Shown in pieces: positions 10,967 through 54,061 of a stretch of DNA of 64,000 bases. Location: assembly GCA_000002435.2 (NCBI GenBank), contig CM018792.1; one strand, written 5' to 3'. Numbering within the stretch: the stretch's first letter is position 1; each line of letters begins with the position of its first letter. Position numbers and translations under genes: made by a program. Below the pieces are notes generated by a model. That model was not told the DNA's origin and made no database searches. It saw only the letters and a program-made list of their open reading frames with translations. The stretch is from Giardia intestinalis. Taxonomy: Eukaryota.

Positions 10967-11111
10967 AAACAAAAAACCGATTATTTACGGAGAATGAACA
11001 AACTAATTTATTTTAGTCACAGAGGAACATAGGAGCCATGCGACGGTAACATACGTACCTGAGTAGGTTCGCATCCTTTTCATCAGCAGTGTGCTAGAAA
11101 TAAAACTGAGC

Positions 11112-11321
11112 ATGGAGAAACCACAGATGTGTGATGCGGAGATAAACACGCCAATCTACAAGGAGGGATGTGAAACAGGACCAGCTACGGATGGAAACCC
11201 CAGTGAAGCTGCACTCAAGCTGAAGACCAGTCTTATTGAGGCTGAAAGGCTTCTTCAAGCAATTAAGATGGACTTCAGGAATCTTCAGATACTCGCGAAC
11301 GATGAGTGTGCGTCGGCATGA
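11112..11321 (+). CDS. Possible small coiled-coil protein (69 aa); weak call
   Basis: Track ORF 11091 starts at GTG. An in-frame ATG at 11112 has A/T-rich context (agaaataaaactgagcATG). It sits in a 380-bp otherwise empty gap. No homology recognised. Confidence 0.25.
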   Translation: MEKPQMCDAEINTPIYKEGCETGPATDGNPSEAALKLKTSLIEAERLLQAIKMDFRNLQILANDECASA

Positions 11322-11349
11322 AGCAGAACACGCGCAGTTTTGCGATAGG

Positions 11350-13692
11350 CTAGTTCCAGTGCAAGCGACTAGTAAATTGCTCTCCTTCCACATAAAATTC
11401 GCTGGGCGAGCTTGTGCAGATGACGTCCCTCTGTGCCAATTGTTGATTGGTAAATATAACTATTAGAATTGCCAGGCAGCGACCCATAAGGGTGCTATAT
11501 GAGCAGTGGAGAACAACCGCGCTCAGTGACTCTGTGGAGACACCGTCAACGGGTCGCAGTTTCAAAATATGCCCATAGGGATAGTTGTGCAATACTGTGA
11601 GAGAGATGATCTTTGTATAACGTGTTGCTAGGCAGAGCACAGACTCTAGCTCAAGTGAGCGAGCTGGCAAGCTCTCTACGAAGCTCTCTAACCGTGCAAT
11701 TGTTGCAGAGACATCAATCTCATTGAGGTTATCCTTCGCAGCCCCCATATGCGACCCAAGGTTGGATTGGCTTAGCTTGATTGCAGGTGTGGTGATCCAT
11801 TGCATAAAGGCATCCTTGACCTGCTTGACTTTGGCCCTTCGCAGTGGATAGCACTGATCGTAGAGCTCCTTGCAAACTTCCTCAAGCACAAGGTCAAAGC
11901 ATGTTGCTACAGGAGAACTGAGATAGGCATTTGTGAGCTCAGTAGAACCAACAATCTGCGACACATACCAGAGAACAGACCTAGAGCTATAAGAGTGAGC
12001 CCGCTTGGTCCTGGGCCGCCTCGCCCAGGCACCAAAAGCATCGAGAACATGAGACAGATTATAGTAGAGCGTCGACGGAGCAAGTGTAGTGGGAATGCAC
12101 GGGGCTTGCGTGAGGTTAGAAACCGTTATTAGAAGCTCTTTCTCCCCCAAGATGGGGATACCATCGCGTACCAGACCAAGAAGGAAAGGCTGGGCTTCAT
12201 CTTTTGAAACCGCAAACGACAGAGAAGCAAACTGAGAGGTACTTAGAATAGGTTGGAAGATGATTGAGGTTTGTCCAGAAGAAGCAGCACTTGCTGGGGG
12301 CGGTGTAACAAACTCAAGACTGGTCAATGGCATTATGTCAACGTGCGTTGGTCTAGACAAGGGTTTTGGAGCTTCAGTTAACGGAGACTCATGTGCAAGT
12401 TCAATGGGTTTAGAATCGCATTGTGTTGCAACGCAATCAATACTGTCATCATGTATAACCTCTCCCTCGTCCAGTGGCACCTGGTAATGACCCAATAGGG
12501 CCGTTAGGTCTTTCCGGGCATCACTGGAAAGGACTTGCATGACTCGCAGTTTCCGTAAAGAATCATTAGACAAATATGTCTCCATTTCTTTCGTTAGTTG
12601 TGTCAGGGTCTGGTCATCAAAAAGCTCTAAAGAAGCACTTTGTATTTTATAACGCAACGCATTGCGAGAGCCCCGACTCCACTCCGGGGGTTCTCCTAAG
12701 GGTGCTAGGGTGAGCCTCGTAATTCTGAATGCACGAAGAATCGTAGAGTTGGTAAAATTATTATGAAGTAAATCGTTAGTAAAGTAATTAGACGGAAGCA
12801 TGGAGGTGGTACCTGTGCAAGATACTGCTGAGCAATTAGGGTAGCAGGTGTGAAAGCGAGCCTCAGGGGTTAGATCCTTTGCCGCCCGCAGACTAGAATA
12901 CTCTGTATGCCCCCACACTCTCCTGGAAATAGCATTGCAAATACGCTTAATGCCAGCATCCACGTCATAGCACATTCCAGATTTGAAGTCTCGCTGCCGA
13001 GCAAGGATTGTCATATGAACCAGGTCGGGTAATGACTGCATAACGGGAAACCGTCGACGAATCAGTTCCTCGTCCAGCATATTGTATGATACCAGATACC
13101 TGTGCTCATTAGCATTGCCTCCGTTATCACCTATATAGGATAGAAATGCAGGCACAAACCCTCCTAAAAGTAGAGGAGCCGCCGAATTCTGTTCTCGCAA
13201 GTGGATCAGCTCCTCGATGATGGAGGGTGAGCCCAGTGCACCATTAGTTGAGTCCGCGCTTGTATGGATGATTGCATATCTCTGCTGCAAATTGCAATAG
13301 CAGACGGCCCCTGACAGAAGGGTACGCTCTACATAACGAAGTTGCTTCTGGTTGGAGTGGACAGGCATGCGCACTCCGTTGCGTATCCTGATAGAAAAGC
13401 GCTTGGCAAAGAAGACACGCAACCGAGGGAGTGACCGACGCCGCCGGGCTTTACGAGAAAGCTTTGGTGGTGGTGCTAGCTTATCGCGCTTGGCAAGAGT
13501 TTTGAATACTCGTGGAAGGCACCTGACCGACCAGCTCATGAGCCTTCGGCGCCGGTGTCGCGGGAGAAGCTGATATGTCCGGAACGTCTTATGACGTCCC
13601 GCAGCATCCAAAAGGGCCTTTATAGCATTCATCTGCTCCTTGAGCAGGGACTCGCCGTTGAGTGAAGCCAGCTTCGATGGAGGACTCGCCAT
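11350..13692 (-). CDS. POP1: RNase P/MRP protein subunit POP1-like (780 aa from first ATG)
   Basis: Track start 13698 is TTG; first ATG is 13692. The N-terminal region has a basic RHRRRRLMSWSVRCLPR stretch, then RRRRSLPRLRVFFAKRFSIRIRNGVRMP and GAVCYCNLQQRYAIIH. These match the POP1-domain signatures (Arg-rich segment, then the W/FHAKRFHM motif, then the 'DLSY..IxLxG'-type block). Confidence 0.5.
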   Translation of the reverse strand: MASPPSKLASLNGESLLKEQMNAIKALLDAAGRHKTFRTYQLLPRHRRRRLMSWSVRCLPRVFKTLAKRDKLAPPPKLSRKARRRRSLPRLRVFFAKRFSIRIRNGVRMPVHSNQKQLRYVERTLLSGAVCYCNLQQRYAIIHTSADSTNGALGSPSIIEELIHLREQNSAAPLLLGGFVPAFLSYIGDNGGNANEHRYLVSYNMLDEELIRRRFPVMQSLPDLVHMTILARQRDFKSGMCYDVDAGIKRICNAISRRVWGHTEYSSLRAAKDLTPEARFHTCYPNCSAVSCTGTTSMLPSNYFTNDLLHNNFTNSTILRAFRITRLTLAPLGEPPEWSRGSRNALRYKIQSASLELFDDQTLTQLTKEMETYLSNDSLRKLRVMQVLSSDARKDLTALLGHYQVPLDEGEVIHDDSIDCVATQCDSKPIELAHESPLTEAPKPLSRPTHVDIMPLTSLEFVTPPPASAASSGQTSIIFQPILSTSQFASLSFAVSKDEAQPFLLGLVRDGIPILGEKELLITVSNLTQAPCIPTTLAPSTLYYNLSHVLDAFGAWARRPRTKRAHSYSSRSVLWYVSQIVGSTELTNAYLSSPVATCFDLVLEEVCKELYDQCYPLRRAKVKQVKDAFMQWITTPAIKLSQSNLGSHMGAAKDNLNEIDVSATIARLESFVESLPARSLELESVLCLATRYTKIISLTVLHNYPYGHILKLRPVDGVSTESLSAVVLHCSYSTLMGRCLAILIVIFTNQQLAQRDVICTSSPSEFYVEGEQFTSRLHWN

Positions 13693-13789
13693 CCACAAAG
13701 TATAATCAAGCGGCTGGTCTTCCTTTTTGCTGAATCATGAATTCATACTCAAAAAGTCGCGTAATTCGTCGTTGCAAGCAAAGGCGACG

Positions 13790-16750
13790 ATGGCTAGCAG
13801 CTACCAGCGGCCTAACCAGCCATTCAATGGGGTAACTGTCACGCAAGAAGGACAGGAAGCGACAGTCATAGTGATATTGCCAAAATTGACTGAAAAGGGT
13901 ATCAATAACATGGCACAGCACTTGCGATGGTTAAGCAAGCTTGCGCACACGCACATCTCGCCCTTGATATCACACACTTATTCCAAAGAAAGCTCATGTC
14001 TTTCTCTCAAATACTTTGTTGGAGACGCGGTGCAACTATCCCAAATCATGGCCCGCTCTGCAGAGAAGAGCTCTGGAAAAGCACATATCACAGAGACAAC
14101 CATAATAGGCTTGTTATTGCATGCTGCGGCAGCGCTGGGATTTGTCTGCAATCCGATTCGCTCTCAGCTGATGAATATTCCTCCACAGCATCACTCCTTT
14201 CTCTCTCCAGACTTCATCTTCATTAATGAACACACGAGAATGGCTTCCATCGTCGCAGTAGGAATCTATTGGAATCTTCTGCAGCCAGAGGATTCTAGAG
14301 ACATGATGCCCACCATTTCTTATAGTCGCGAGAAAGAAGATGTTCTGGTGTTAGGGAAGCTGATTAATAACATCATCATGCAATCAACTGGGTCCTACTC
14401 TGGGCTACTAAAGCGGATTGTCAATCTTATGCTCAATGAAGATCCGCAATCTCGACCGAACTTTGCTGATCTATATATTTTTCTCTCATCACTAGTAGAA
14501 CTACAACAAAATCCTCAATATAAGCCTAAGGGTTCTACGGCACCACCAGATGAACTGCAACCTCCTCGAGCTATGCGGCGTGCAAGTACCCAAATACCAG
14601 ACTATCAGCGCTCTCCGTCACCGACGTATGAGAGATATACATCAACTATGCACCGATCTATAGAGGTACCCAAGACTTCTCGTTGTGTCCAAAGTCCCAC
14701 AGAACAATTCAGTCACACAGCACCCATCAAGCGACCAGTATCTGTCCTGCAGCAGGTAATAAAGACTAGGAGCCAGTCAAGGACTATGCAACCCATCTTC
14801 CCACAGTCTTCTCCAAGTCTGCAAACACAACAAGCAGGCAATCCAGTTAGTAAGAACATGAAGGTTACTAGAAAATGCAATCCGCTCTTCGAAGCAGTGG
14901 AGTCTAATGACATTGGCGAAGTGCGCCGTTTGAAAGAGCTGTTTGCACGGGGAACAGATGCTTCGGGGAATACTGCACTCATAAGGGCCTTACAACTTCG
15001 TAATACAGACATTGCCATGGAGCTCCTTCCCTTAGAATATCAGAAACGGAACAGCAAGGGCCAGCTGCCTCTAATGGTTTCTTTAATAGAGAAGATGGAT
15101 GCAGTTGCCGTCGAGCTACTCCTTAATTACGATGAGTTCTATGGCACAACAGACGATAAGGGGAACACAGCATTGATGTATGCAGTCATGAGCCACTTTA
15201 AAAAGGCGGTAGAGGTCCTTGCAGTACACGAGCACAGCATTCCAAACAAAGAAGGAACATATCCTATACACGTTGCCATAAAGCATGGATTTATTGATCT
15301 AGCGCTATATCTCTTAGAATATAATAGTGATGTACTAGATAGAGAATACAGGACCCTTTCTGAATACTGTGATCTTTACAATTGTCCACTAGTGAAAGAT
15401 AGACTTCTAACCATTAGCAAGCGAGCATCTAGCGCACCTTCTGATTACACAGCCTTAATGGTGGCTGCTGGCTTGAACGATATTGACGATCTATACAGGT
15501 ATCTTCCCTCGCATGTAGGTATGCGGCATGCATCTGGGGAAACAGCGCTTATGGTGGCCATCCGAAAGAACCAGGTGGATGCCATGCGAGTACTCCTTCC
15601 ATATGAGTTTCACCTTCCGGACAAAACCGGCCACTTCTTCATGTACCAAGCAGGGTTAACAGGCTCGCGGCAGCTTATCAAGTGTGCACTGGACTCTTTG
15701 TTCACTGATGCCATGCTTATGTGTTTGCAGTTTGATGACAATCTAAGTGAGATTGCGATAGAGCTACGAGCCATGATAGAGGAGGCCTTGGTTTCCAACG
15801 ACCAGGATCTCTTACGAAATTGCATTCAAGATCTTGATAGCATAATTAGTCACCAAGTAGAAACCGGAGCCATAGTCACGTACTATGACGATCTTTGGGT
15901 CGGTCCATCCACCCCACTATTGATTCCAGACTCTGCAGTGCATCTGGGAGAAGCAGATTTGGACATCAACGCCTTGAATGTATCGAATTCAGGTGTATAT
16001 GCAGAGGCATCGACCAGTTCACAGCTAACTGAGCAAGTCATTACAAGTAGGTTAAGGCTCTCCAAACCTTCGTATGCGTCTAACGTTTTTAAGGACGCGA
16101 AGAGTGTCACTTCATCTAAGCCAAGTAGGCTAGGTCGTCGCTCCTCGAGCAGCCTTGCACTATCGTCTACTGTCCAGGTCAATGACGTTTCTAAACCAGC
16201 TAGTAAGGTCTCTACTGTGATCAACGGGGATTCGCATGATCCCTCGTCCTCGACTGGTTTGTCAGCAGAAAGAAAGAAAGCTAAAACACTACTAACAGCA
16301 AGTACGGTTGGATTTAAGGATCTCTCCGAGAGTCTCCAGTCATCTTCAGCAACCCTTTTTTCCACAGACATAAATGAATACGGTAACACCCCGTTGACAT
16401 GCTCTGTGTTGAACAGCGATGTTGACTCCGTAAAAAGTTTCGCCAAAAGGTATGCATGCTCTCTCAATAACAAAGGTGAGACCGCACTCCACACGGCTCT
16501 TCAGTTACCCAACAATTCTACTACCGTAGAAATGGTGCGCATATTGGCACCACTAGAATGGAATGTTTCTTCATCAAATGGCACATATCCCATCGAATTG
16601 GCCGCCATCAGGATGCTCCGTGAGGCATTTCTCATATTAGTAGAGCACGACTCCCGCTACTCGGCTGAATCAGTCAAGGCCATCAAAAAAGCAATAGATG
16701 AAGGTGACACAAAGACTGTGAAAAGCCTTGTCTGGTCTAAGCAGATGTAG
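13790..16750 (+). CDS. NEK-like pseudokinase fused to ankyrin repeats (Giardia NEK/'21.1' family)
   Basis: Track start 13727 is TTG; first in-frame ATG is 13790 (MASSYQRPNQ...). The N-terminal ~270 aa has a kinase-like fold ending in ...NEDPQSRPNFADL (subdomain XI-like) but lacks an HRDLKPxN catalytic loop. The C-terminal half has repeated GNTALM../..TALMVA ankyrin units. Confidence 0.6.
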   Translation: MASSYQRPNQPFNGVTVTQEGQEATVIVILPKLTEKGINNMAQHLRWLSKLAHTHISPLISHTYSKESSCLSLKYFVGDAVQLSQIMARSAEKSSGKAHITETTIIGLLLHAAAALGFVCNPIRSQLMNIPPQHHSFLSPDFIFINEHTRMASIVAVGIYWNLLQPEDSRDMMPTISYSREKEDVLVLGKLINNIIMQSTGSYSGLLKRIVNLMLNEDPQSRPNFADLYIFLSSLVELQQNPQYKPKGSTAPPDELQPPRAMRRASTQIPDYQRSPSPTYERYTSTMHRSIEVPKTSRCVQSPTEQFSHTAPIKRPVSVLQQVIKTRSQSRTMQPIFPQSSPSLQTQQAGNPVSKNMKVTRKCNPLFEAVESNDIGEVRRLKELFARGTDASGNTALIRALQLRNTDIAMELLPLEYQKRNSKGQLPLMVSLIEKMDAVAVELLLNYDEFYGTTDDKGNTALMYAVMSHFKKAVEVLAVHEHSIPNKEGTYPIHVAIKHGFIDLALYLLEYNSDVLDREYRTLSEYCDLYNCPLVKDRLLTISKRASSAPSDYTALMVAAGLNDIDDLYRYLPSHVGMRHASGETALMVAIRKNQVDAMRVLLPYEFHLPDKTGHFFMYQAGLTGSRQLIKCALDSLFTDAMLMCLQFDDNLSEIAIELRAMIEEALVSNDQDLLRNCIQDLDSIISHQVETGAIVTYYDDLWVGPSTPLLIPDSAVHLGEADLDINALNVSNSGVYAEASTSSQLTEQVITSRLRLSKPSYASNVFKDAKSVTSSKPSRLGRRSSSSLALSSTVQVNDVSKPASKVSTVINGDSHDPSSSTGLSAERKKAKTLLTASTVGFKDLSESLQSSSATLFSTDINEYGNTPLTCSVLNSDVDSVKSFAKRYACSLNNKGETALHTALQLPNNSTTVEMVRILAPLEWNVSSSNGTYPIELAAIRMLREAFLILVEHDSRYSAESVKAIKKAIDEGDTKTVKSLVWSKQM

Positions 16751-33961: not shown

Positions 33962-34801
33962 TCAGAAGATGTCGTTATTATCGTTTCCGGCAATGTCATC
34001 CGTCAAGAAGGTGTTGCCTCGAACTTCACGCTGGTTATTTATGATATCCTGTGCAAAATCGTCATCGTTGTAATCATCGTAGTCTTCCTTGTACTCAGCT
34101 TCCTGTGGCTTCGAGACTGGCGGCGGCTGGGGTGCTTCTACCTGTTCCTTAAAGCACTCAGTATCAAAGGTGTCGTCATCATCGGTCGGTGCAGTGTAGT
34201 CATTATTAGAAGTACGATTCAAAAAGTCCTCGGTTCTGTAGGAGTCCTCCTTGGGGGTGTACCTTTGTCGGTGGGCCCTGACAGAAGGCAAAGATGAATT
34301 GCGAGACGACCGGTCATAGTTGTAGCTAGACATCCCGGCGGACGCAGGAGGGTATTCGGACAGATGCTCAAGATCCTTTCTGGAACGAATGTAGTCGGCC
34401 TCGAGCTTCTGAACAGAATGAGTGGGCTTGACGCTAGAGATCTGGCGGTGGATCCTTTGGTTCTCTGCTTCTATTTCGCGCACCCTCTTCTCGCGCATGA
34501 GAATATTGAGGGACTTCGGACCTTGCTGCTTCAGATGGCAGTCGATGCGCGCCGGGTGGCGTAGTTCGTTATGATAGTCAATTCGTCTCAAAAGAATATG
34601 ATTTTCGCGGTTTATCTGTTCAAGACGTTCGTTTGCTTCGTAGAGCTTCTTAGAACGACACTCAAGATGCGGCTGTCTCGGCGGTGTCTTGTTGTCCACA
34701 GCCGCCTTCATGGACGCCTTCTTCTTCTCGTGCGCTTGCTTATCCCTCTCGACCCAGATCTTTTGGAGGTACTTGGATGCAACGGGTATACCTCTATCCA
34801 T
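33962..34801 (-). CDS. Hypothetical coiled-coil protein with acidic C-terminus (279 aa from first ATG)
   Basis: Track start 34885 is TTG. The first ATG is 34801 with a classic AT-rich upstream (ctcaaaattacaataaaatccaaaaattaATG). K/R/E-rich heptad-like sequence, then a D/E/Y-rich tail. Confidence 0.65.
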   Translation of the reverse strand: MDRGIPVASKYLQKIWVERDKQAHEKKKASMKAAVDNKTPPRQPHLECRSKKLYEANERLEQINRENHILLRRIDYHNELRHPARIDCHLKQQGPKSLNILMREKRVREIEAENQRIHRQISSVKPTHSVQKLEADYIRSRKDLEHLSEYPPASAGMSSYNYDRSSRNSSLPSVRAHRQRYTPKEDSYRTEDFLNRTSNNDYTAPTDDDDTFDTECFKEQVEAPQPPPVSKPQEAEYKEDYDDYNDDDFAQDIINNQREVRGNTFLTDDIAGNDNNDIF

Positions 34802-34939
34802 TAATTTTTGGATTTTATTGTAATTTTGAGATCCCAGCAGGTCAGATCTCTGAGTAGAAACATGGAACTGAATAGTACACAACAAGCATACAGCGCTGTC
34901 CTTTATACCTGTGGAATCATCATCGTCAGAAGGCCGTCT

Positions 34940-36109: not shown

Positions 36110-36754
36110 TTATATGGAGGACATGGGTGCGCGTACCGGCGTTCCCAACCGCTGCCCTGGGGGGTCGGTTGTTAGCTCCCTACATTGGGATTTCAAATGA
36201 ACTGTCTGAGAGGAATCTATGTTTTCGTGCTCAGCATAGTTTGAAAATAAGCCGGGATTAGAGCTTACAAGAGAGTGCATGTCTTCAGGAATCATAGCGC
36301 CATCTTGCAAAGACGCCACTAGGTCTGGATTATGAATCAGCACTTGTTCATTTGCACTTATGCGAGTCGATTCTTGTGCCTCCACTATCTCATGTTCAGC
36401 TGGGTCCGCCAGATCGTGGAAATCACTGGGAGGCTCTTCAATAGGAGGCGGGGCTGGTAGATCGGCTGTATAAAGGAGGGACCTTGCGACAGAGAGGTCC
36501 TTTGGCTCGGGAGCAGGCTCCTCGAGGATATTACTGAGCCCACCAGTCATATTGATGTTGGTGTCTGCAATTAATCCATAGCCAGTAACGTTCTCTAAAT
36601 CGGGGGTAGGGAACGCGTCACGCTGGAATGCAGCGCCTGCAGGCCTCGTGTACGCCTCTTCTGTTTCTACCACTACATTGTATCGTTCACAGATGGCCCG
36701 GATCTTATTATACGACTCTGTGAGCATGGAGTACGCCATGGTGGCCGTGTTCAT
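36110..36754 (-). CDS. Hypothetical protein (214 aa)
   Basis: ATG at 36754 with AT-rich upstream (ttttaaaccaaaATG). Pro/Glu-rich middle region. Confidence 0.55.
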   Translation of the reverse strand: MNTATMAYSMLTESYNKIRAICERYNVVVETEEAYTRPAGAAFQRDAFPTPDLENVTGYGLIADTNINMTGGLSNILEEPAPEPKDLSVARSLLYTADLPAPPPIEEPPSDFHDLADPAEHEIVEAQESTRISANEQVLIHNPDLVASLQDGAMIPEDMHSLVSSNPGLFSNYAEHENIDSSQTVHLKSQCRELTTDPPGQRLGTPVRAPMSSI

Positions 36755-37175
36755 TTTGGTTTAAAAGTTTCAAGTCGAGCCCACATTGTATGCCATATGT
36801 CTTTGAGAAGTCTGAGACAGGGATGCTGGTCATTATCTCTCTGACTGCTGTGAGCGGGCTTTGCCAGTTAGCGACACTGCGATTGGCTCCGCTTAGATCG
36901 CTGCTATCATCTATACTGTATCAGGCGGTTTTTGCCACAAATCCTAGTAACTAACTGTATTAGTATCTTAATCTATGTGTTATCGATGTAATGTCATCAG
37001 CTTTTAATTGAGTAACTCACTACTTGCTCACCTCTCAAACCTACGCCTTGCCACCACTTATCTGCCGTGATTTTGGATCTTCTCCGGGTCCCTATTCAGA
37101 TACTGCGTGTCGCTTGAAGATCTATGGCCAGATATCCACCAGCGGATTCATCGATGATGCGTTTACTATCTAAGT

Positions 37176-38963
37176 CTACGCCTTTCCGCGGCAGATGAAC
37201 CACCAACACAAGAAGCCCACGAGGCCCCCAACGACAACAATCACAGCGACGGAGATCCCCGCGATGGCCCCCGTGGAGAGCCCGCCCCTGTTGGCGCCAG
37301 AGGACACACACCTGCCACCCTCCAGCTTGTAGTCGTCCCCGCACTGGCCGCACTTGTTCTCCTCGCTGCACCTGATACACCCGTCGATATTGCAGGCGAT
37401 GCACTTCGTTCCGTCTGTGTCCGGTCTCTGGTCTTTACTGGTACAGGCCTCGCACTTGCCGCCTGCTCCACAGTGCGAGCATCCGTCAACGGTACATGCG
37501 AAGCACCCGCTCCCAGCCAGGTTGGGCTTGTTGTTGCCGCTACACGCTGTGCACGTGGCGGGGGCCATGCCAGGAGCCTCTAGCGCTGCTGGGGCCGTGC
37601 ATGCTGTGCAGCCATATACCCCCACATATGCCTTAGCGGTGCTGCCAGCCCCTATCACTGTGCCAAGGGGGTTCTCGCAGGCCAGGACAGACTGATCAGT
37701 ACTGGATGCCCCCGGGACCAGGAAGTACCGGCCGTTCTCGCTGGGGGCGGTGCACCTCCCTCCCTCGGCAGTCTTGCACATATAGCTACCAGGAGCCTTC
37801 GACACATCATAGCAGCCGCCCATGTACAGGAAGTACCCGGCAGCACACCGGGTGCAGACGCCGTTCTCGCAGGTGTTGTCACCTTTAGTTCCTGTGCAGA
37901 TCCCATCGATGGGGAACGTGGCGGGGTCTCCGCACAGCGAGCAGTACTGGGAGAACGCCCCGGCGCTGTCAACGACGACCGCCCCGCAGGCCCCAGACGT
38001 CCCCCCGCAGGCCGTGGGGTCCTCGCAGGCCTTTGTGCACTTCACCGGATTGGTTCCCTCCTTGCGATAGTTGGACTTGCAATCGGTGCATGTAGGGGTT
38101 AGGCCGCTGTTACATTGGGAGCACCCCTCGATGCCATTGTCGGCTTTACTGTCGCAGGCGAAGCACTTACCAGCAGAGCCGGGTTGTTTCATGAAGAATC
38201 CAGGCTTGCATTTAGTGCACTGATCATTGCCAGCAGCAGAGCATGTAGCACAGTTGGCACCGCAAGCTGTGCATGTATCAGAACCAAAGTATCCGTCGAG
38301 GCAAGCTGAGCAGGTCGGCTTGGCTCCGTTCTTCTTACACGTTTTACAATTAGCAATCCCCTTGTCGTTTGCTTCTGTTCCTGTTGTTGTATCACTGCAT
38401 AATATGCACTTGGTGCTATCATCACTCAGAAAGTGGGATCCGTCGACGTTATCTGTTGCGCACCCAGCATCATCGACGCAAGTGGTTGTCCCATCCAGCT
38501 CTGTCTTCACCTTCTTATTGTTACAGGCGGTGCACTGGGGCTTGCTGACAGTCGTGTTGTACTCACACGCGGTGCAATCTGCTATACCAGACTCCTTGCA
38601 TGTCCTTGTCACAGGGTCAGCATAAGTGTTTCCTTCACATGTAGGTGAACAGGTATTATCGCTTTTCAGATACTTCCCCTCCTTACAGGATGTGCAATGA
38701 TTCGGACCACTTCCACTGCAAGTCAGACAGGACTGATCACACTGATTGCATTCGTTATTCTCTTTATAGTACCCCTCTTGACAGGCAGTGCACGTGGCTG
38801 CCCCCTTATTATTAGTTGGTGCCGTACATGTGGCACAGCCCTCGACTCCCTTCGTCGCGCCATCTCCCACCGTGTCCCAGCAGAGGATGCACTCATTACC
38901 AGGAGTCACTGTTGCAGCCGGGTTCTTGAACAGGCCGTTAGCTGTGTTACAAGCAGTGCACAC
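37176..38963 (-). CDS. Variant-specific surface protein (VSP), 5'-truncated copy lacking a start codon and signal peptide; likely pseudogene or silent cassette
   Basis: Ends ...GGLSTGAIAGISVAVIVVVGGLVGFLCWWFICRGKA* followed by AGTAAAC (37161-37167 on the forward strand). CXXC-rich throughout. The track 'M' at 38963 is actually GTG. An in-frame TAG lies 3 codons upstream. No in-frame ATG occurs until ~aa 256. There is no hydrophobic N-terminal signal sequence. Confidence 0.7.
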   Translation of the reverse strand: MCTACNTANGLFKNPAATVTPGNECILCWDTVGDGATKGVEGCATCTAPTNNKGAATCTACQEGYYKENNECNQCDQSCLTCSGSGPNHCTSCKEGKYLKSDNTCSPTCEGNTYADPVTRTCKESGIADCTACEYNTTVSKPQCTACNNKKVKTELDGTTTCVDDAGCATDNVDGSHFLSDDSTKCILCSDTTTGTEANDKGIANCKTCKKNGAKPTCSACLDGYFGSDTCTACGANCATCSAAGNDQCTKCKPGFFMKQPGSAGKCFACDSKADNGIEGCSQCNSGLTPTCTDCKSNYRKEGTNPVKCTKACEDPTACGGTSGACGAVVVDSAGAFSQYCSLCGDPATFPIDGICTGTKGDNTCENGVCTRCAAGYFLYMGGCYDVSKAPGSYMCKTAEGGRCTAPSENGRYFLVPGASSTDQSVLACENPLGTVIGAGSTAKAYVGVYGCTACTAPAALEAPGMAPATCTACSGNNKPNLAGSGCFACTVDGCSHCGAGGKCEACTSKDQRPDTDGTKCIACNIDGCIRCSEENKCGQCGDDYKLEGGRCVSSGANRGGLSTGAIAGISVAVIVVVGGLVGFLCWWFICRGKA

Positions 38964-38993
38964 TCCACTACTGGCCTTTGTGCATATCTCACT

Positions 38994-39050
38994 CCACTAT
39001 CACCCTCTATCATCACCCTCTATCACACACTATCACCTTCTATCACACAT
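38994..39050. repeat. Phased CTATCAC repeat (5 copies at ~10-bp spacing) between the two tandem VSP genes
   Basis: CTATCAC at 38997, 39007, 39019, 39029 and 39039 (forward strand; GTGATAG on the VSP coding strand). Confidence 0.7.
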
Positions 39051-39072
39051 TGTACAGCATTCACTACCTAAG

Positions 39073-41049
39073 TCACGCCTTCCCCCTGCAGAGGAACCAC
39101 CAGCAGAGGAAGCCCACGAGGCCCCCCACGACAGCGACCACAGCGACGGAGATCCCCGCGATGGCCCCCGTGGAGAGCCCGCCCCTGTTGACGCTTCCGC
39201 CGGTGTTGTCGCCAGTGCCGTCGCCCATCTCGAGGCACATGAACGCACCGGTGGATGACACCGTGCACTGCCTGCACCCAGCGAGCCCCTCAGAGCACGG
39301 ATTACACTTTGTCCCAGCACTCTGCGGTTTGTAATATCCAGTGCTGCATGTAGCACAGGCGTTAGCGTCGTTAGCAGCCGTGCATGTCTCGCAGCTAAGA
39401 TGGCACCTTTTATTGGAACAATCGCCATTATCAGCCGTTAGACCACTGGCACATTTTGTACATTTTCCTCCCTGCACTGTAGTACACACCTGCTTGCCAG
39501 GCTGTCTATCTGTCTGATAGCAACCACCATCTTTGAGGAAGTAGTTATTTTCACATTGAGTGCATGCTCCATTACTCACCGTAGTGCAAAATCGTGTTCG
39601 CGTATTGGCCGCACAGTTGCCATCCAGTGGTGCCTGTTGAGTGTTCTTGCACTTTGAGCAGTATGCAGTTCCTCCTATTTGGGCCCCACACTCTGCGCAT
39701 CCATCGTTTGCAGGGCTCACGCTGCACTGGTTCATGCACGTGCCCCCATTGGCAGGAGTATCAGCATCTGTATACTGAAGCATCCTCCCAGCAGGACAAG
39801 CCGTACACTTATCAGCGCCCTCACCCTTGCACTCTATGCACGCATCGTTGCACTTCTTGCACTTTCTGTCAGTGTCATTTCCGTAGTAGCCCTTGAGGGT
39901 CGTGCAGTCAGATACGCATTGACTGGTTGGGGTGAGGTAGTACTCAGACAGACACTTTGTACAGACCTCCTTATCGGCACCTTCACCGGTGCACTCCAAA
40001 CAGTGCTCTGTGTTACAGTTACTGATTGGTTGGCATTCAGTCGATTCAGTATTAGGTTGGAGTCCTTCGTTGCACTCGCACATTTGGCTACCCTGCCCGG
40101 TGGCCTTGGGGGTAGAGTTAGCAGGGCAACTAGCAACGCACGACTTTCTGTTGAGACCAAAGATGGTCTTCTTGCCAGTCGTACATGTCTTGCAAACCAC
40201 TCCGTTGGCGCCTTTCTCACAAGTGGTGCAGTCCACCGTCCCTCCTGAAACGCAGGTGTTGCACTCCTTTGCTTCTTCATCAACGTAGTGGGTTGCCGGA
40301 CAACCAGCTGTATCAACACATTCTCCTGAATTACTAGAAGCATCTGTCACTTTAAGATATTCCTTGTCGTTGCCACCAGCTGATTTCAGCTTGCATCGTG
40401 TGCATTTGCTGTTTCCTGCTCCAACACATGTAGCGCAGTTATCATCGTTGCAGGCAGTGCATGCTGTTCCGCCAGAGGCAACAAAGAATCCTTCAAAGCA
40501 CGTCTTGCATGTGGCGGTTTTCCCCAAACGAAGAGCACCAGCAGGATTCTCTATTGTGCACGTCGCACAGTTCTGAACCCCCTTGTTTTCATCTATAGCT
40601 GTGGTTTGATTGCATGCAATACAGGACTCCTTCGTTTTATCGAGAGATTCTGTCGGATTCTTGAAATATCCCGGGCTGCACGCCTCGCAGACCCCTTGAG
40701 TTTGTGACGCCTGCGTGTCCTCGCAAATGAGATTCCCCGGCTCCGTCCCTATCTTGTAACATCCTCCCCTGTGCAGGAAGAAGCCGGCTTTACAAGATGT
40801 ACATGTGCCATCATTCTTTGTTGTACATGCTCCTTCAGCATCCTCGCCTGTAGTTATGCACTTTCCATTGACAAGATGCTCTGCTGCTGTCGAGCACTGG
40901 GAGCAGAAGTTTGAGCCCCCAATCCAGACGTCGCACTTGTCCTGTTTGCATTTCTTTGATTCCGGGTCGCTGGTAGCCACTGTGCATGTTTCTGCCGCAG
41001 CCCATACCACTTGCAGGATGGCGATTCCGAAGATGATTTTCTCGAACAT
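39073..41049 (-). CDS. Variant-specific surface protein (VSP), apparently intact (658 aa from ATG)
   Basis: Track start 41070 is GTG. The in-frame ATG at 41049 gives the signal peptide MFEKIIFGIAILQVVWAAAETC. Numerous CXXC motifs. GGTC/GGCY-type Cys-rich repeats. C-terminal TM plus CRGKA* and an AGTGAAT poly(A) signal right after the stop. Confidence 0.9.
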   Translation of the reverse strand: MFEKIIFGIAILQVVWAAAETCTVATSDPESKKCKQDKCDVWIGGSNFCSQCSTAAEHLVNGKCITTGEDAEGACTTKNDGTCTSCKAGFFLHRGGCYKIGTEPGNLICEDTQASQTQGVCEACSPGYFKNPTESLDKTKESCIACNQTTAIDENKGVQNCATCTIENPAGALRLGKTATCKTCFEGFFVASGGTACTACNDDNCATCVGAGNSKCTRCKLKSAGGNDKEYLKVTDASSNSGECVDTAGCPATHYVDEEAKECNTCVSGGTVDCTTCEKGANGVVCKTCTTGKKTIFGLNRKSCVASCPANSTPKATGQGSQMCECNEGLQPNTESTECQPISNCNTEHCLECTGEGADKEVCTKCLSEYYLTPTSQCVSDCTTLKGYYGNDTDRKCKKCNDACIECKGEGADKCTACPAGRMLQYTDADTPANGGTCMNQCSVSPANDGCAECGAQIGGTAYCSKCKNTQQAPLDGNCAANTRTRFCTTVSNGACTQCENNYFLKDGGCYQTDRQPGKQVCTTVQGGKCTKCASGLTADNGDCSNKRCHLSCETCTAANDANACATCSTGYYKPQSAGTKCNPCSEGLAGCRQCTVSSTGAFMCLEMGDGTGDNTGGSVNRGGLSTGAIAGISVAVVAVVGGLVGFLCWWFLCRGKA

Positions 41050-41447
41050 TGCCGGCAGCCCATAGAGCACGCAACACCAGGCGACGCTGCCACGTGGTGA
41101 GTGAGGATAATGTGCACCTCACAGGCATGCCCCGGTGTAGCGGATCTCTGGTGTCCTAGCGGCCTCTCCTGTGTGTGGCGTCTCTAGGTACCAAGGAGAG
41201 AATGGGCGTTGTGACATCTCAAGAACGGCCCCTCGCACATCACCGGTACCTGCGACAGTAGCCACCACCCCACGAATGGTCCGCTCAGATAGTGAATACG
41301 TCCACTGCTATGAAACTGGACCGATGCTCTTCACAAGAGCTGCCTGGACGGGAAGAAGCGCTGTGCTGTTGGGATTGCCTGTAAGCGCACCCAGAAATCC
41401 CACGAGTAAGTTTCACTCTTGTGGTCGTGTCCGGAGACAAACGTTAG

Positions 41448-41469
41448 TCCCTGATGATATCATCAGGGA
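41448..41469. repeat. 22-bp perfect palindrome TCCCTGATGATATCATCAGGGA in the divergent VSP/HCMP intergenic region
   Basis: Read directly: the first half ccctgatgat is the reverse complement of atcatcaggg, and the flanking t/a extend it to 22 bp. Confidence 0.8.
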
Positions 41470-41811
41470 TCTCTCTTTATTTGTATACCAGGAGTTGCTT
41501 GTATTCATCGGTCGTTTTGTGTAGTATGTGCTCAGACTGAGTGTGTGTCGACCTGCCTCACTTTTTGATCTTCTTTTATGTTGGGTGAAGTGAATCATCA
41601 TCGTCCAAGTAGTATCCGATTTCTTGAATCAAAAAACAGCGAGAATGCCGCTCTACGTGACAGTTCCCATGCTTGACGTTAACTGTACCGGTTGACTACG
41701 CAAGAATCTATGCGAGTCTTATGTTTCCGAGTATTTCTATAACAAAAGTAGTGTGATAGGATTCTCTATTAAATATGGATGCATTAAAAACTTGCTTTCT
41801 CCAGGAGTCTC

Positions 41812-44313
41812 ATGATCGGTTTCGTCTCGCTTCTCCTATGCGGTATTTTCTCAGAATGCACCCAGGATAGCGAGTGTGGCGGCGCCGGGGGTACTTGTGA
41901 TGTCACGATCGGCGGTAAGAAGTACTGCTCCAAGTGCGACGGAGCGCGGGTCCCCGTCAACGGAGTTTGCAGATTGTTGAATGTATCTCGTAGTATATGC
42001 CAAGTTCCATTGAATAGCGCGGGTACTGGCTCTTGTACAGGCTGCATCCGTGACTTCCTCTTCTACAGGGGCGGGTGCTACCGCACGGCATCCCTGATCA
42101 ACGCCATATGCAAGGAGAAGCACATCGTCGAGGAGGGGATGTACTGCGGGGCGTGCGCCATCGAGGGCGACGTCCCGATCGACGGGGTGTGCGTATCAGC
42201 AAGCACAGATAGCTCTGGAAACACGTGCGACAAGGGCGTGTGCACGACATGCGCAAGCGGATACTTCTTCCACTACGGGTCATGCTACAAATTCGGAGGA
42301 TCTCCAGGCAGCACTGTGTGTCCTAAGCCAACTAGCACTACTGGCTCTGTCTGTGATTCTTGCGGGTCGAAGTTCGTCAAGAACCCCAGTGCGAGCTCGT
42401 CTGCCACCTCCTGCCTCGCGTGCTACGGGCTGGACGGGACCCTCTTCTGCGAGCGCTGCCGGATGAACGTGCTCACGAGCGCAGACGTGAAGCCCACTCT
42501 GTGCACACAGTGCAAAATAGGCTACGTGCCCGTGGATGGTCGTTGTGTGTCAACTTACTCTGCCACCTCGGCTCTTGCAGGGTGCTCTACCTATAGCGGT
42601 AATGAGAATACAAAGGGACTTTGCGAAACGTGCTCCTCCGGCTACATGCTCTTCTACGGGAGCTGCTACTCTGTCAACGGCCCCCTCGCCCAGGCCATCT
42701 GCAAGACCGAGAACCAGATCTACCTTGGGGGAAGGGTCTTCTGCAAGAGGTGCGCCCAGACAGACCACTACCCCATCAACGGCTTATGCATTGCTGATAA
42801 GGGATCACATACGTGCGAGGCGGGCATCTGCACAGCATGCGACACCAGCATGACCTCTGTCGACACCTCCAAGGTTTTCCTGTTCTACAACGGCTGCTAT
42901 GATGCAAACTCTGCAATCGGAAAGCTAATATGCCAGGAGGCGTCTAATGGAGCGTGTTCAACTTGCAATACAAACGAGACATCGAATATAATAGCTAATC
43001 CTAATTCTGCAGATGGCCAACCAAAATGTCTTGGATGTTGGGACGAGGCAGCTACTGGGGTGGCCAACTGCGGAGGGTGTGCGGCCGGCACAGACGGCGA
43101 TTCCAAGATCGTCTGTAGCAAGTGCACCGACTCGACGGAGCCCAAAGACAACACGTGCCCTCAGGCCCTCCCGCCCACAACGCCTGAAGGATGCGCCGTC
43201 CAGGGCTGCCAGGCGTGCTCGAAGGACTCCGCTACGACGTGCGACGCCTGCTTCGAGCCTCTCATCATGAAGGAGGACAAGACGAAGTGCTTCGGGAGTT
43301 GCCTGGCGCTGGGCCCGGGCTACTACAACAACTCTGGGATATGCAGCCCATGCATAGAGAACTGTCTCCTTTGTACAGACGGGGCCACGTGCTCCCAGTG
43401 CGCCGAAGGGTACTATCTCGAAGTGTCTGGTGCCGGCTCAACGACAGGAACCTGTAAGGCGTGTGCTACTGGATGCTCGACGTGCGCCAGTGCCGGTGAT
43501 AACCTTTGCTCTACGTGTGCTGTGGGATATTATGCTGCATTTGCTCCACGGCGCGGGGAAACGGGAAAATGCATTCTATGTAATGCCAGTGGGGATGGAT
43601 ATACTGGCGTCGCAAACTGTGCCGTTTGCTATAGTACTACAGGGGAAAGCGGAAATAAAAACGTTGTATGTAATACATGTGATGATGGATACATTAAACA
43701 GCACACAGGTAATACAGTCGTTTGTAACCTTCCGACTCCAGAATGCAATGCCGCAATGTGCTCGGTTTGTGTTGAAAATAACCCAGATCGTTGTGAGCAC
43801 TGCACGACCGGCGCGTACCTCTGCCCGCGGACGGCGACGTGCACGAAGGACTGCGCCAGCTGCGGCGGCTCGATGTACCCCGACGATGACCTCGGGGAGT
43901 GCCAGCCGTGCGACATCGCGAACTGCCGGGTCTGCGCGACGGGGCTCAAGTGCGAGAGCTGCGCGGAGAGCGCCGTCCCCATCTCCCCGGACGTCTACCA
44001 CACGGCGTGCATGGGCTGCAGCGACACCGGGGGCATGGACGGCTGGGTGGGCCTCGCGGGGTGCACGACCTGCGAGCTGACCGACAAGGGCGGCGGGAGC
44101 GTCAACTGCCTCGACCCCGGCTACTACCGGCGGGGCGGGCTCGGCGGGGGAGCAATCGCCGCCATCGTCATCGTCGTCCTCCTCGTCCTGGCCGTCGCCG
44201 GCTTCCTCGTCTGGTGGTTCGTCTTCAGGAGGGGCGGCCGGCCCAAGCGCGGGGCGAAGTACACATCGCTCATGCGGGGCGAGTCCTACGACTACCGCCA
44301 GTCTCTAATATGA
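41812..44313 (+). CDS. High-cysteine membrane protein (HCMP; VSP-like Cys-rich type I membrane protein without CRGKA tail), 833 aa
   Basis: ATG at 41812 with signal peptide MIGFVSLLLCGIFSEC. Dozens of CXXC/CXC motifs. C-terminal TM AIAAIVIVVLLVLAVAGFLVWWFVF, then a cytoplasmic tail RRGGRPKRGAKYTSLMRGESYDYRQSLI. AGTAAAC at 44320-44326, 7 nt after the stop. Confidence 0.9.
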   Translation: MIGFVSLLLCGIFSECTQDSECGGAGGTCDVTIGGKKYCSKCDGARVPVNGVCRLLNVSRSICQVPLNSAGTGSCTGCIRDFLFYRGGCYRTASLINAICKEKHIVEEGMYCGACAIEGDVPIDGVCVSASTDSSGNTCDKGVCTTCASGYFFHYGSCYKFGGSPGSTVCPKPTSTTGSVCDSCGSKFVKNPSASSSATSCLACYGLDGTLFCERCRMNVLTSADVKPTLCTQCKIGYVPVDGRCVSTYSATSALAGCSTYSGNENTKGLCETCSSGYMLFYGSCYSVNGPLAQAICKTENQIYLGGRVFCKRCAQTDHYPINGLCIADKGSHTCEAGICTACDTSMTSVDTSKVFLFYNGCYDANSAIGKLICQEASNGACSTCNTNETSNIIANPNSADGQPKCLGCWDEAATGVANCGGCAAGTDGDSKIVCSKCTDSTEPKDNTCPQALPPTTPEGCAVQGCQACSKDSATTCDACFEPLIMKEDKTKCFGSCLALGPGYYNNSGICSPCIENCLLCTDGATCSQCAEGYYLEVSGAGSTTGTCKACATGCSTCASAGDNLCSTCAVGYYAAFAPRRGETGKCILCNASGDGYTGVANCAVCYSTTGESGNKNVVCNTCDDGYIKQHTGNTVVCNLPTPECNAAMCSVCVENNPDRCEHCTTGAYLCPRTATCTKDCASCGGSMYPDDDLGECQPCDIANCRVCATGLKCESCAESAVPISPDVYHTACMGCSDTGGMDGWVGLAGCTTCELTDKGGGSVNCLDPGYYRRGGLGGGAIAAIVIVVLLVLAVAGFLVWWFVFRRGGRPKRGAKYTSLMRGESYDYRQSLI

Positions 44314-52384: not shown

Positions 52385-52399
52385 TTGACAGAAAAAGGC

Positions 52400-54061
52400 A
52401 TGGTGGTGCTGGTCATAGGATTCTTTCTCTCCATATTGATGTGCACGCGCATTGACGTGTTCTTGCTGGATGGCATGCGAGAAGACTTTTTTCTCGACGG
52501 GGAAGTCATCAATAAAACATATTTCCCTCGTCTTACTGTCTCTGCCTTTCCATCTGTAAAGAAAACAGTGCTCACCGAAACACCAACGTACACAACCAAC
52601 TGTCTTCATGCCATGTATACAGGTAGGGTCACTCATCCGCTTTGCGTCCTGCTGGCACTGGCTCCATCAATGTATACCATCACTGGAGGACCAAGAGAAA
52701 AACCTCGCGTTCTCAAGCTTCTGCTGCAGAGGGGGTATAGTTTGAGTGTCAGTGGGGATGACACATTAGCCAAGATGTTCCCTAGCTACTTCAGTCAATC
52801 GCAGACAGCATACTCCTTCAGCATAGGTGACTATGACACAGTAGATAACATAGTACTCCAGAGCCTGCAAGATCTTTGGGCAAGTGGTGCAGCTGTAACC
52901 AATCAGTTCTCGGTATACCACTTTCTCGGAGCAGACCATGTTGCACACAGCGAAGGCCTACTGTCCGCTACACTACGTGAGAGGTATAACAGGTATGATA
53001 ATCTGATAGACACTCACCTGAATTTTCTTCACAATATGTGGACCAAAGGCGATCTTGATAGCTATGTTGTCATCATTCTCTCGGACCACGGGATGACAGA
53101 CAAGGGTACCCACGGCGGCTTCAGTGCAGCAGAGACTCACACTCCCTTTCTGCTATTCACGTCCTCAGAATCGCTTAGAGAAGGCCTTGAAACGCGAGTC
53201 GGTCAACTGATTCCACAGCGACACATCCTACTTCACGTTCTCTCGAAGTTATTTCTCGCAGAGACAGGAGCCGAAATTGAGATAGAAGCGACAGATGGAG
53301 CGCCTTCCAGTGCTGTTTCGTCCATAGACGTCTGTATTATCATCGCTTACACTATCTTATTAGCGATACTTTCGACAATAATTATCGCCCGTAAGCGTCC
53401 TATAAGCTCAGCAATTCTAATGTGTCAGTTTCTGTGCGCTGTAGCTGCACGGTTTGCGCACAACGAAACGGTGCCTTTGGTAATTAGCCTTGCAATGGAA
53501 CTTATTTGGAAGACTAGGTCTGATAGCAATGAAATCAACGTAAGATACGGTGGAAAGAATCCTGCGAGAAGACATAGCATGTATCGGGCTCTCCTAATTG
53601 TATCTTATGGTGCCTGGATAGCGTCTCTTGCATATATTACAAGGAGCGTGTACTCAGTAACACCAGCAGCCTTGATGTTGGTGATCCAAACCTTCAATGC
53701 CCGAGCAGAGCTGCGGCATATATTGCTGCGCCTGCTACTCAACGGTATGGGGCACACAGAACTCTTTTCATATAGACTTCCATCCATATATCTGTCAAAT
53801 AGACCCAAAAACTCGGCCAATCCTTGGAGTTGTGCAGCTTATATTTTCTTAGCCGATGGACTGCCTACAATGATCAGCGGAAGCATATATGACTTCACCA
53901 GTCTTGCTACTCTGATATTCTCCTCTCTGCTATTTCGATGGCACCCCCTCTACAACTCCATCTGCGTTTCGAGGCTAATAATGGGGATCGTGACGGCTAT
54001 TCTGAGTTTAAGCGGTGTGATTATGAGGAGAGTAGGGTCAACCTTGGGGTTCTTGAGATAG
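52400..54061 (+). CDS. GPI ethanolamine-phosphate transferase-like protein (PIG-N/PIG-O/PIG-G alkaline-phosphatase-superfamily fold) with C-terminal TM helices (553 aa)
   Basis: Track start 52385 is TTG; ATG at 52400 (acagaaaaaggcATG). Motifs VFLLDGMREDFF (like VLLVIDALRxDF), TETPTYTTNCLHAMYTG, HFLGADHVAH, and ILSDHGMTDKGTHGGFSAAETHTPFLLF (like GDHGM..G.HGG.S..E). About six C-terminal hydrophobic helices. Confidence 0.65.
   Translation: MVVLVIGFFLSILMCTRIDVFLLDGMREDFFLDGEVINKTYFPRLTVSAFPSVKKTVLTETPTYTTNCLHAMYTGRVTHPLCVLLALAPSMYTITGGPREKPRVLKLLLQRGYSLSVSGDDTLAKMFPSYFSQSQTAYSFSIGDYDTVDNIVLQSLQDLWASGAAVTNQFSVYHFLGADHVAHSEGLLSATLRERYNRYDNLIDTHLNFLHNMWTKGDLDSYVVIILSDHGMTDKGTHGGFSAAETHTPFLLFTSSESLREGLETRVGQLIPQRHILLHVLSKLFLAETGAEIEIEATDGAPSSAVSSIDVCIIIAYTILLAILSTIIIARKRPISSAILMCQFLCAVAARFAHNETVPLVISLAMELIWKTRSDSNEINVRYGGKNPARRHSMYRALLIVSYGAWIASLAYITRSVYSVTPAALMLVIQTFNARAELRHILLRLLLNGMGHTELFSYRLPSIYLSNRPKNSANPWSCAAYIFLADGLPTMISGSIYDFTSLATLIFSSLLFRWHPLYNSICVSRLIMGIVTAILSLSGVIMRRVGSTLGFLR

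Follow-up and report, generated by a model that had tools for sequence, protein, structure and literature searches.

Giardia intestinalis varies its surface during infection by means of the VSP antigens, and how the repertoire of these proteins is renewed is an open question. One locus on chromosome 4 raises this question on a small scale, as a complete VSP gene, GL50803_0032933 (vsp11), is directly followed on the minus strand by a copy that has no start, GL50803_0032890 (vsp10), and one has to ask what such a copy is, how it came to lack its 5′ end and what it could be good for. The two genes occupy positions 37,176–41,049 of a 64,000-nucleotide stretch of contig CM018792.1 (assembly GCA_000002435.2), which is referred to here as the window. 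Exact-sequence look-ups of seven proteins encoded in it all led to entries of strain WB, clone C6 (ATCC 50803), from the 2020 reference genome. A first-pass annotation made from the sequence alone had pointed to this head-to-tail pair and to the missing start codon and signal peptide of its second member; this observation was confirmed, and nothing was found that contradicts the identity of the locus. Very likely, the vsp11/vsp10 array is composed of an expressible head VSP and, behind it, a psiVSP cassette with an inherited truncation, which is untranslated, exchanges segments with its relatives and constitutes a passive sequence reservoir.

The head gene (39073–41049, minus strand; 658 aa plus stop; KAE8303702.1/XP_001709621.2) is the first member of the array. 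An exact-sequence look-up of its product returned an exact match to the catalogued protein, and the Pfam VSP domain PF03302 was detected with E = 5e-80. Its ATG at 41049 lies in the initiator element (Inr) CAATGTT (41045–41051, minus strand; sequence context CCGGCAATGTTCGAG), which is the element given for gene 32933 by Adam et al. (2010; BMC Genomics 11:424), where a vsp Inr is defined as PyAATGTT. The N-terminus MFEKIIFGIAILQVVWA (40999–41049, minus strand), taken from the translation, resembles a signal peptide with a putative cleavage site, and the gene is placed among the complete VSPs, all of them with a predicted signal peptide, by Rodriguez-Walker (2022; 10.1101/2022.03.07.483299). A transmembrane (TM) segment and the CRGKA tail precede the stop codon TGA (39075–39073), to which the extended VSP polyadenylation motif ACTTAGGTAGTGAAT is joined (39059–39072, minus strand; core AGTGAAT at 39065–39059); table S6 of the latter study lists GACTTAGGTAGTGAATGCTG as the motif of GL50803_0032933. 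In Additional file 1 of Adam et al. (2010), vsp11 is gene 32933 and bears the mark “LA, X”, i.e., first in array, and the values recomputed here (658 aa, 78 Cys, 25 CXXC) equal those of the table exactly. On its other side, the head VSP stands head-to-head with a High cysteine membrane protein (HCMP) group 3 gene (KAE8303703.1, 833 aa, 41812–44313, plus strand), and a non-coding stretch of 762 bp (41050–41811) separates the two start codons.

The downstream copy covers 37176–38996 on the minus strand, with 606 sense codons and a terminal TAG (37178–37176), and is a 5′-truncated VSP pseudogene without start codon, Inr or signal peptide. It is listed in table S7 of Rodriguez-Walker (2022) as a VSP pseudogene (pVSP) of 1821 nt on NC_051859.1 (chromosome 4), with “N” for both ORF and signal peptide, and this entry, which starts with tggagtgagatatgcacaaaggcc (first letters tggagtgagatatgc), is exactly the sequence from 38996 to 37176 of the window. 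As the accessions KAE8303701 and KAE8303702 are consecutive and leave no number in between, the copy lacks a protein record of its own in the present annotation. Two in-frame stop codons, TGA at 39002–39000 and TAG at 38999–38997, stand immediately before the frame, which opens at 38996, 11 codons upstream of a GTG at 38963. The encoded sequence contains 75 Cys (12.4%) and 28 CXXC motifs, followed by the TM segment AIAGISVAVIVVVGGLVGFLCWWFI and CRGKA, and it matches PF03302 with E = 1e-34; a stop-free frame of 606 codons together with a VSP Pfam match shows that the copy is not random sequence. Directly after the stop codon comes the extended polyadenylation motif ACTTAGATAGTAAAC (37161–37175, minus strand; core AGTAAAC at 37167–37161), and the motif that table S6 assigns to GL50803_0032890, GACTTAGATAGTAAACGCAT, likewise follows the TAG in the window. 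Among the features that define a complete VSP (Xu et al., 2020; Rodriguez-Walker, 2022), the copy hence possesses the Cys-rich CXXC ectodomain with TM and CRGKA and the extended poly(A) motif after the stop, and it lacks a signal peptide on an in-frame Met and the PyAATGTT initiator. It also shows these traits of a psiVSP or a downstream member of a linear array: a head-to-tail spacer within 0–241 bp, a VSP-like 3′ end without start, Inr or signal peptide, and an entry in the catalogue.

What is lost can be measured against the relatives, since the alignment of the copy to full-length family members begins at their residue 100–110. Approximately 300 bp of coding sequence, or about 100 N-terminal residues, are missing, comprising the signal peptide and about 85 residues of the ectodomain. 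When an orphaned N-terminal module or signal peptide was looked for by tblastn, only the three known Cys-rich genes were hit. The first in-frame ATG is codon 269 (38190–38192, minus strand); its context, TTCTTCATGAAA, is not an Inr, and an earlier annotation let a “VSP” of 338 aa start there. This is the form in which vsp10 (32890) appears in Additional file 1 of Adam et al. (2010), where it is assigned to clade I, “LA” and chromosome 4, with Inr “No”, 338 aa, 33.9 kDa, 39 Cys and 13 CXXC. Reading from Met 269 of the window, we obtained the same figures without exception, and the exact agreement for both genes indicates that the earlier WB assembly used by Adam et al. (2010) agrees with the window sequence.

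Several details of the first-pass annotation can be adjusted accordingly. It had described the upstream VSP as complete, with ATG, signal peptide, CRGKA and AGTGAAT, and this holds throughout. The pair and its strand were read correctly as well, whereas the stated gap of 109 bp only applies to the GTG and shrinks to 76 bp when measured to the open frame. For the downstream copy, TM, CRGKA and AGTAAAC were recognized, but the ectodomain, taken to be full, is short of some 85 residues. The TAG three codons after which the frame was thought to open (38970–38968) is out of frame, and the real stops are those at 39002–38997. Finally, no ATG indeed occurs before 38192, which is codon 269 of the open frame.

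The clue to the origin of the truncation lies in the junction between the two genes. From the head-gene stop to the first sense codon of the pseudogene there are 76 bp (109 bp to the first GTG), with stop codons in all three frames. This spacer combines the extended poly(A) motif belonging to the head gene, which runs on as ATGCTGTACA, with a degenerate ~10-nt repeat of the GTGATAG type (38997–39049, minus strand; TRF period 10, 4.7 copies), which ends in the in-frame TGA TAG. GTGATAG is found four times within 50 bp at the junction vs. 14 times in the remaining 64 kb. The repeat runs directly into TAG/TGG AGT GAG ATA TGC (the slash marks the boundary), giving the boundary sequence TGGAGTGAGATATGC and the peptide WSEICTKA. 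In table S7, which holds the published Cys-rich pseudogenes of WB, the 15-mer tggagtgagatatgc occurs at least 48 times and WSEICTKA at least 52 times; in the tables of complete genes, WSEICTKA has zero occurrences. One part of table S7 was inspected in full, and six of its seven pseudogene entries begin with the boundary or a one-base variant of it, while the seventh shows GTGATAG and then TGGAGTG. The same junction of polyadenylation signal and GTGATAG repeat is present at the 5′ ends of the pVSPs GL50803_00114065, 00115085, 0040022, 0040023 and 0061959. At the matching site of a full-length homologue from assemblage A2 (isolate DH, AHGT01000044.1), the sequence reads AAG ACG AGC CAG/TGG TCT GAG ATC TGC, and the similarity of the pseudogene to this homologue starts at (C/T)AG TGG, with nothing aligning upstream. 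A boundary that recurs about 50 times in the WB pseudogene table points to a truncation that was most likely inherited and not caused by a local lesion.

As a side observation on the A2 sequence, the DH homologue of GL50803_00111732 (AHGT01000044.1, 5800–6100) is annotated as “partial” and has its N-terminus in the wrong frame. LLCVGTTLAVALAAPCQPDGDH is found there in another frame and without an obvious ATG, as would be expected if the 5′ end had become a pseudogene or if the DH assembly contained a sequencing error at this place.

Behind the boundary, the body of the pseudogene is a mosaic. For the first ~70 codons, none of the relatives compared offers a close match. They are followed by a first block (aa 72–274; 38175–38783, minus strand) of 203 residues identical to the pVSP GL50803_00114065 (vsp93), which belongs to another array on chromosome 4. 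On the nucleotide level, identity in this block is 100% from ~38786 to the end of the ~400 nt of GL50803_00114065 that were compared, and its upstream edge is abrupt, with a rise from ~70% to 100% near 38786. A second block (aa 241–365; 37902–38276, minus strand) consists of 125 residues identical to the CRMP/HCMP GL50803_0010659 on chromosome 5 and overlaps the first one in a crossover zone of 34 residues. The third block (aa 270–525; 37422–38189, minus strand), a near-exact run of 256 residues, is 97–100% identical to the complete VSP GL50803_00111732, which lies on the same 4.0-Mb chromosome 5 as the partner of the second block; to the assemblage A2 (DH) homologue of this gene, the nucleotide identity amounts to 91% over 38081–37125. 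The same combination of blocks is carried by a pseudogene on an unplaced scaffold, GL50803_0050497. Such a block pattern is the outcome of segmental gene conversion, or of recombination between members of the family, and it shows that the copy took part in sequence exchange, leaving the direction aside. Recombination of this kind has been shown statistically for vsp 3′ regions (Adam et al., 2010). The unmatched beginning and the later blocks with identifiable partners make the pseudogene usable as a marker with which to ask whether its segments ever enter expressed VSPs.

The partner of the first block, GL50803_00114065, is also included in a published expression table (table S9 of 10.1101/2022.03.07.483299), where its values are near 0 in seven samples and 12–79 in seven others; multi-mapping with the shared block could affect these values.

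Within the pair itself, the only nucleotide similarity is confined to the conserved VSP 3′ end with TM and CRGKA (37178–37297, minus strand), for which blastn gave 90% identity over 120 nt to positions 39075–39194 of the head gene. The proteins are 35% identical. A recent tandem duplication of the head gene was considered as the source of the downstream copy and is ruled out by this low protein identity together with the mere 120 nt shared at the 3′ end. The assignment of vsp11 and vsp10 to different clades (II and I, respectively) by Adam et al. (2010) weighs against it, too.

A further view of the locus comes from other isolates. The pseudogene is located 421 bp upstream of the start of the next gene on the same strand, GL50803_0012920 (36110–36754, minus strand; KAE8303701). 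In assemblage A2 (DH, AHGT01000022.1, 1–745) as well as in an ENA contig (3–797), a VSP 3′ end lies beside the orthologue of this gene. The 3′ flank of the syntenic A2 VSP is 95% identical to the window on the nucleotide level, and its ectodomain is only ~45% identical to that of the WB pseudogene. Contigs of other samples that contain GL50803_0012920 all stop at the conserved VSP 3′ end, either within it or immediately ahead of it. The slot is conserved, and its content has been replaced.

With regard to the literature, the pair is the already catalogued vsp11/vsp10 two-member linear array and no new kind of element; a full-text literature search gave no paper naming either gene ID. More than half of the WB vsp genes were reported to sit head to tail in linear arrays, with spacers that average 60 bp and range from overlapping to 241 bp (Adam et al., 2010). 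According to the same study, the first members often feature an Inr preceded by a long upstream region, whereas the Inr is absent from every downstream member and the start codon from some of them. The present locus shares the head with Inr and long non-coding upstream region and the downstream member that retains CRGKA and the extended poly(A) motif; it is exactly what these studies call a vsp linear array or psiVSP array and differs from them in nothing in kind (Adam et al., 2010; Xu et al., 2020; Rodriguez-Walker, 2022). GL50803_0032890 also fits the psiVSP definition of Xu et al. (2020; Sci Data 7:38). The first-pass description of a promoter-less, start-less and signal-less cassette behind an expressible VSP consequently coincides with this definition and with the pVSP annotation (ORF N, signal peptide N), and its suggestion of a recombination substrate equals the proposal of Adam et al. 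(2010), in which downstream members are unexpressed, silent cassettes for recombination or, alternatively, discarded remains. The block mosaic lends support to this idea as regards exchange as such, not its direction. The central view that the copy is not a normally translated gene is thus supported and restates what had been published. The available parts of the published array descriptions do not spell out the boundary common to ~50 pseudogenes and the block structure with three partners.

Comparable cassettes exist in Giardia muris, where arrays of likewise signal-peptide-less VSP copies have been proposed to trade segments with intact VSPs through recombination or gene conversion (Xu et al., 2020; Microb Genom 6:mgen000402). 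These psiVSPs were reported to be essentially untranscribed and to bear signs of gene conversion with intact VSPs. In contrast to the locus studied here, where only one cassette follows a complete gene and the surrounding region is chromosome-internal and gene-dense, the G. muris arrays have 5–23 members, are adjacent to telomeres and end in CRGK. The idea of a reservoir also follows the same logic as the archive of VSG pseudogenes and the mosaic VSGs of Trypanosoma brucei, in which segments of silent incomplete genes can be copied into expressed ones, a parallel drawn in the G. muris genome paper (mgen000402; for recent VSG work see PMC13233330). In trypanosomes, however, the use of donors has been shown experimentally and dedicated telomeric expression sites exist, whereas switching in Giardia is regarded as epigenetic or post-transcriptional and pseudogene donors have not been demonstrated. 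The likeness to T. brucei refers to the mode of action only and not to family membership.

Taken as a mechanism, the reading favoured here would start with a truncation that arose once in an ancestral cassette. The unit of junction repeat, WSEICTKA body, TM-CRGKA end and poly(A) motif would then have spread by tandem duplication or unequal crossing-over, for which the conserved 3′ end common to all VSPs could have been used. The resulting copy at this locus would not be translated into a surface protein. It may stay open and near-identical to its relatives because of continuing segment exchange by gene conversion, and it could serve, at least passively, in a reservoir of sequence that new VSP variants draw on.

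Some points weigh against this scenario. The ~50-fold count of the boundary is a count of rows in a published table and not of genome sequence, and the table portion counted yielded at least 48 and at least 52 occurrences, respectively. A reservoir or donor role would rest on sequence patterns only, which give neither the direction nor the timing of the exchange. Copying of the blocks may have gone in one direction only, to the pseudogene and never from it, in line with the “discarded remains” of Adam et al. (2010). Furthermore, silence of the copy should not be assumed, as another array pseudogene, GL50803_00114065, has non-zero expression values.

A rival view, which we consider possible but on the whole rather unlikely, is that the copy is neutral debris, i.e., a discarded VSP remnant decaying without a role in diversification or regulation. 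Adam et al. (2010) put it forward as the alternative to a reservoir, frameshifts and stops occur in many of the sister pseudogenes that share its 5′ boundary, and the observation that essentially all psiVSPs of G. muris are untranscribed (mgen000402) is in agreement with it. The 606 codons of vsp10, however, are all open, and the blocks that are 97–100% identical to two genes of a different chromosome, a complete VSP and a CRMP, argue for recent exchange and not for isolated decay, even if exchange by itself is no proof of usefulness.

A contribution of the copy on the RNA level has to be considered, too. Here, read-through from the head VSP or antisense transcription from a bidirectional promoter of GL50803_0012920 would feed a silencing of VSPs by dsRNA or small RNAs. 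The support is indirect: Giardia promoters were reported to be bidirectional and to generate abundant sterile antisense transcripts (PMC1885649), the pseudogene lies on the same strand just 421 bp upstream of the GL50803_0012920 start, and the non-zero values of GL50803_00114065 in the published expression table, for samples whose nature is not established, could be understood along these lines. Routine read-through is nevertheless at odds with the extended poly(A) motif of the head gene, which is intact and stands immediately before the junction, and the psiVSPs of G. muris were described as non-transcribed (mgen000402). Altogether, a source of regulatory RNA is an improbable explanation.

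Highly improbable is the expression of a protein, be it from the internal ATG at 38192 (338 aa), by read-through of the stop codon of the head VSP or by a splicing event that joins the two ORFs. The 338-aa VSP called from this ATG in the earlier annotation speaks for such a product, and Rodriguez-Walker (2022) cite, and dispute, a plasma-membrane localisation of “VSPs” without signal peptide. Yet the internal ATG has no Inr, its product would lack a signal peptide, a fusion product could form only if several stops were bypassed, whichever the frame, and both current annotations classify the copy as a pseudogene. A joint product of spliced or fused ORFs, which the first-pass annotation had named as an outcome that would overturn its view, is not indicated either, as a search for the cis-intron motifs of Giardia revealed neither the 5′ splice site GTATGT nor the 3′ motif CTRACMCACAG in 37000–41200. 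The probability that an intact 5′ end exists and that the truncation or the mosaic merely reflects mis-assembled VSP repeats is close to negligible: VSP regions are hard to assemble, in many samples the short-read contigs are interrupted within the conserved 3′ end and allelic variation was reported to be higher around VSPs (Xu et al., 2020; Sci Data 7:38), but the figures obtained from the earlier WB assembly are the same for either gene (Adam et al., 2010), the loss concerns ~300 bp and not a single base, which leaves no room for an indel at 38964–39072 restoring ATG and signal peptide as envisaged by the first-pass annotation, stops occupy all three spacer frames and the boundary recurs at dozens of loci.

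Together with the HCMP group 3 gene, the pair forms a three-gene Cys-rich cluster within an otherwise ordinary gene-dense region. An Rfam search gave no RNA family anywhere in the 64-kb window. Long ORFs with TTG or GTG starts at 9509–16750, 33962–34885 and 52385–54061 are probably artefacts of the start rule of an ORF tool for the bacterial code. As an example, the product of a CFAP97-like gene beside kinesin-6 is called with 307 aa in DH A2 (AHGT01000022.1) vs. 279 aa in Logan contigs.

For the VSP family, the value of the locus is modest and lies in a clean, chromosome-internal example with only two members. A more far-reaching conjecture can be attached to its fixed joint of poly(A) motif, GTGATAG microsatellite and TAG/TGGAGTGAGATATGC, which might be no frozen accident but a recombination-prone boundary of copyable cassette units that actively donate segments to complete VSPs and CRMPs on other chromosomes; this is a tentative idea that we regard as unlikely at present. 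If it were true, DNA-level mosaic formation would be a second route of antigenic diversification in Giardia beside epigenetic switching.

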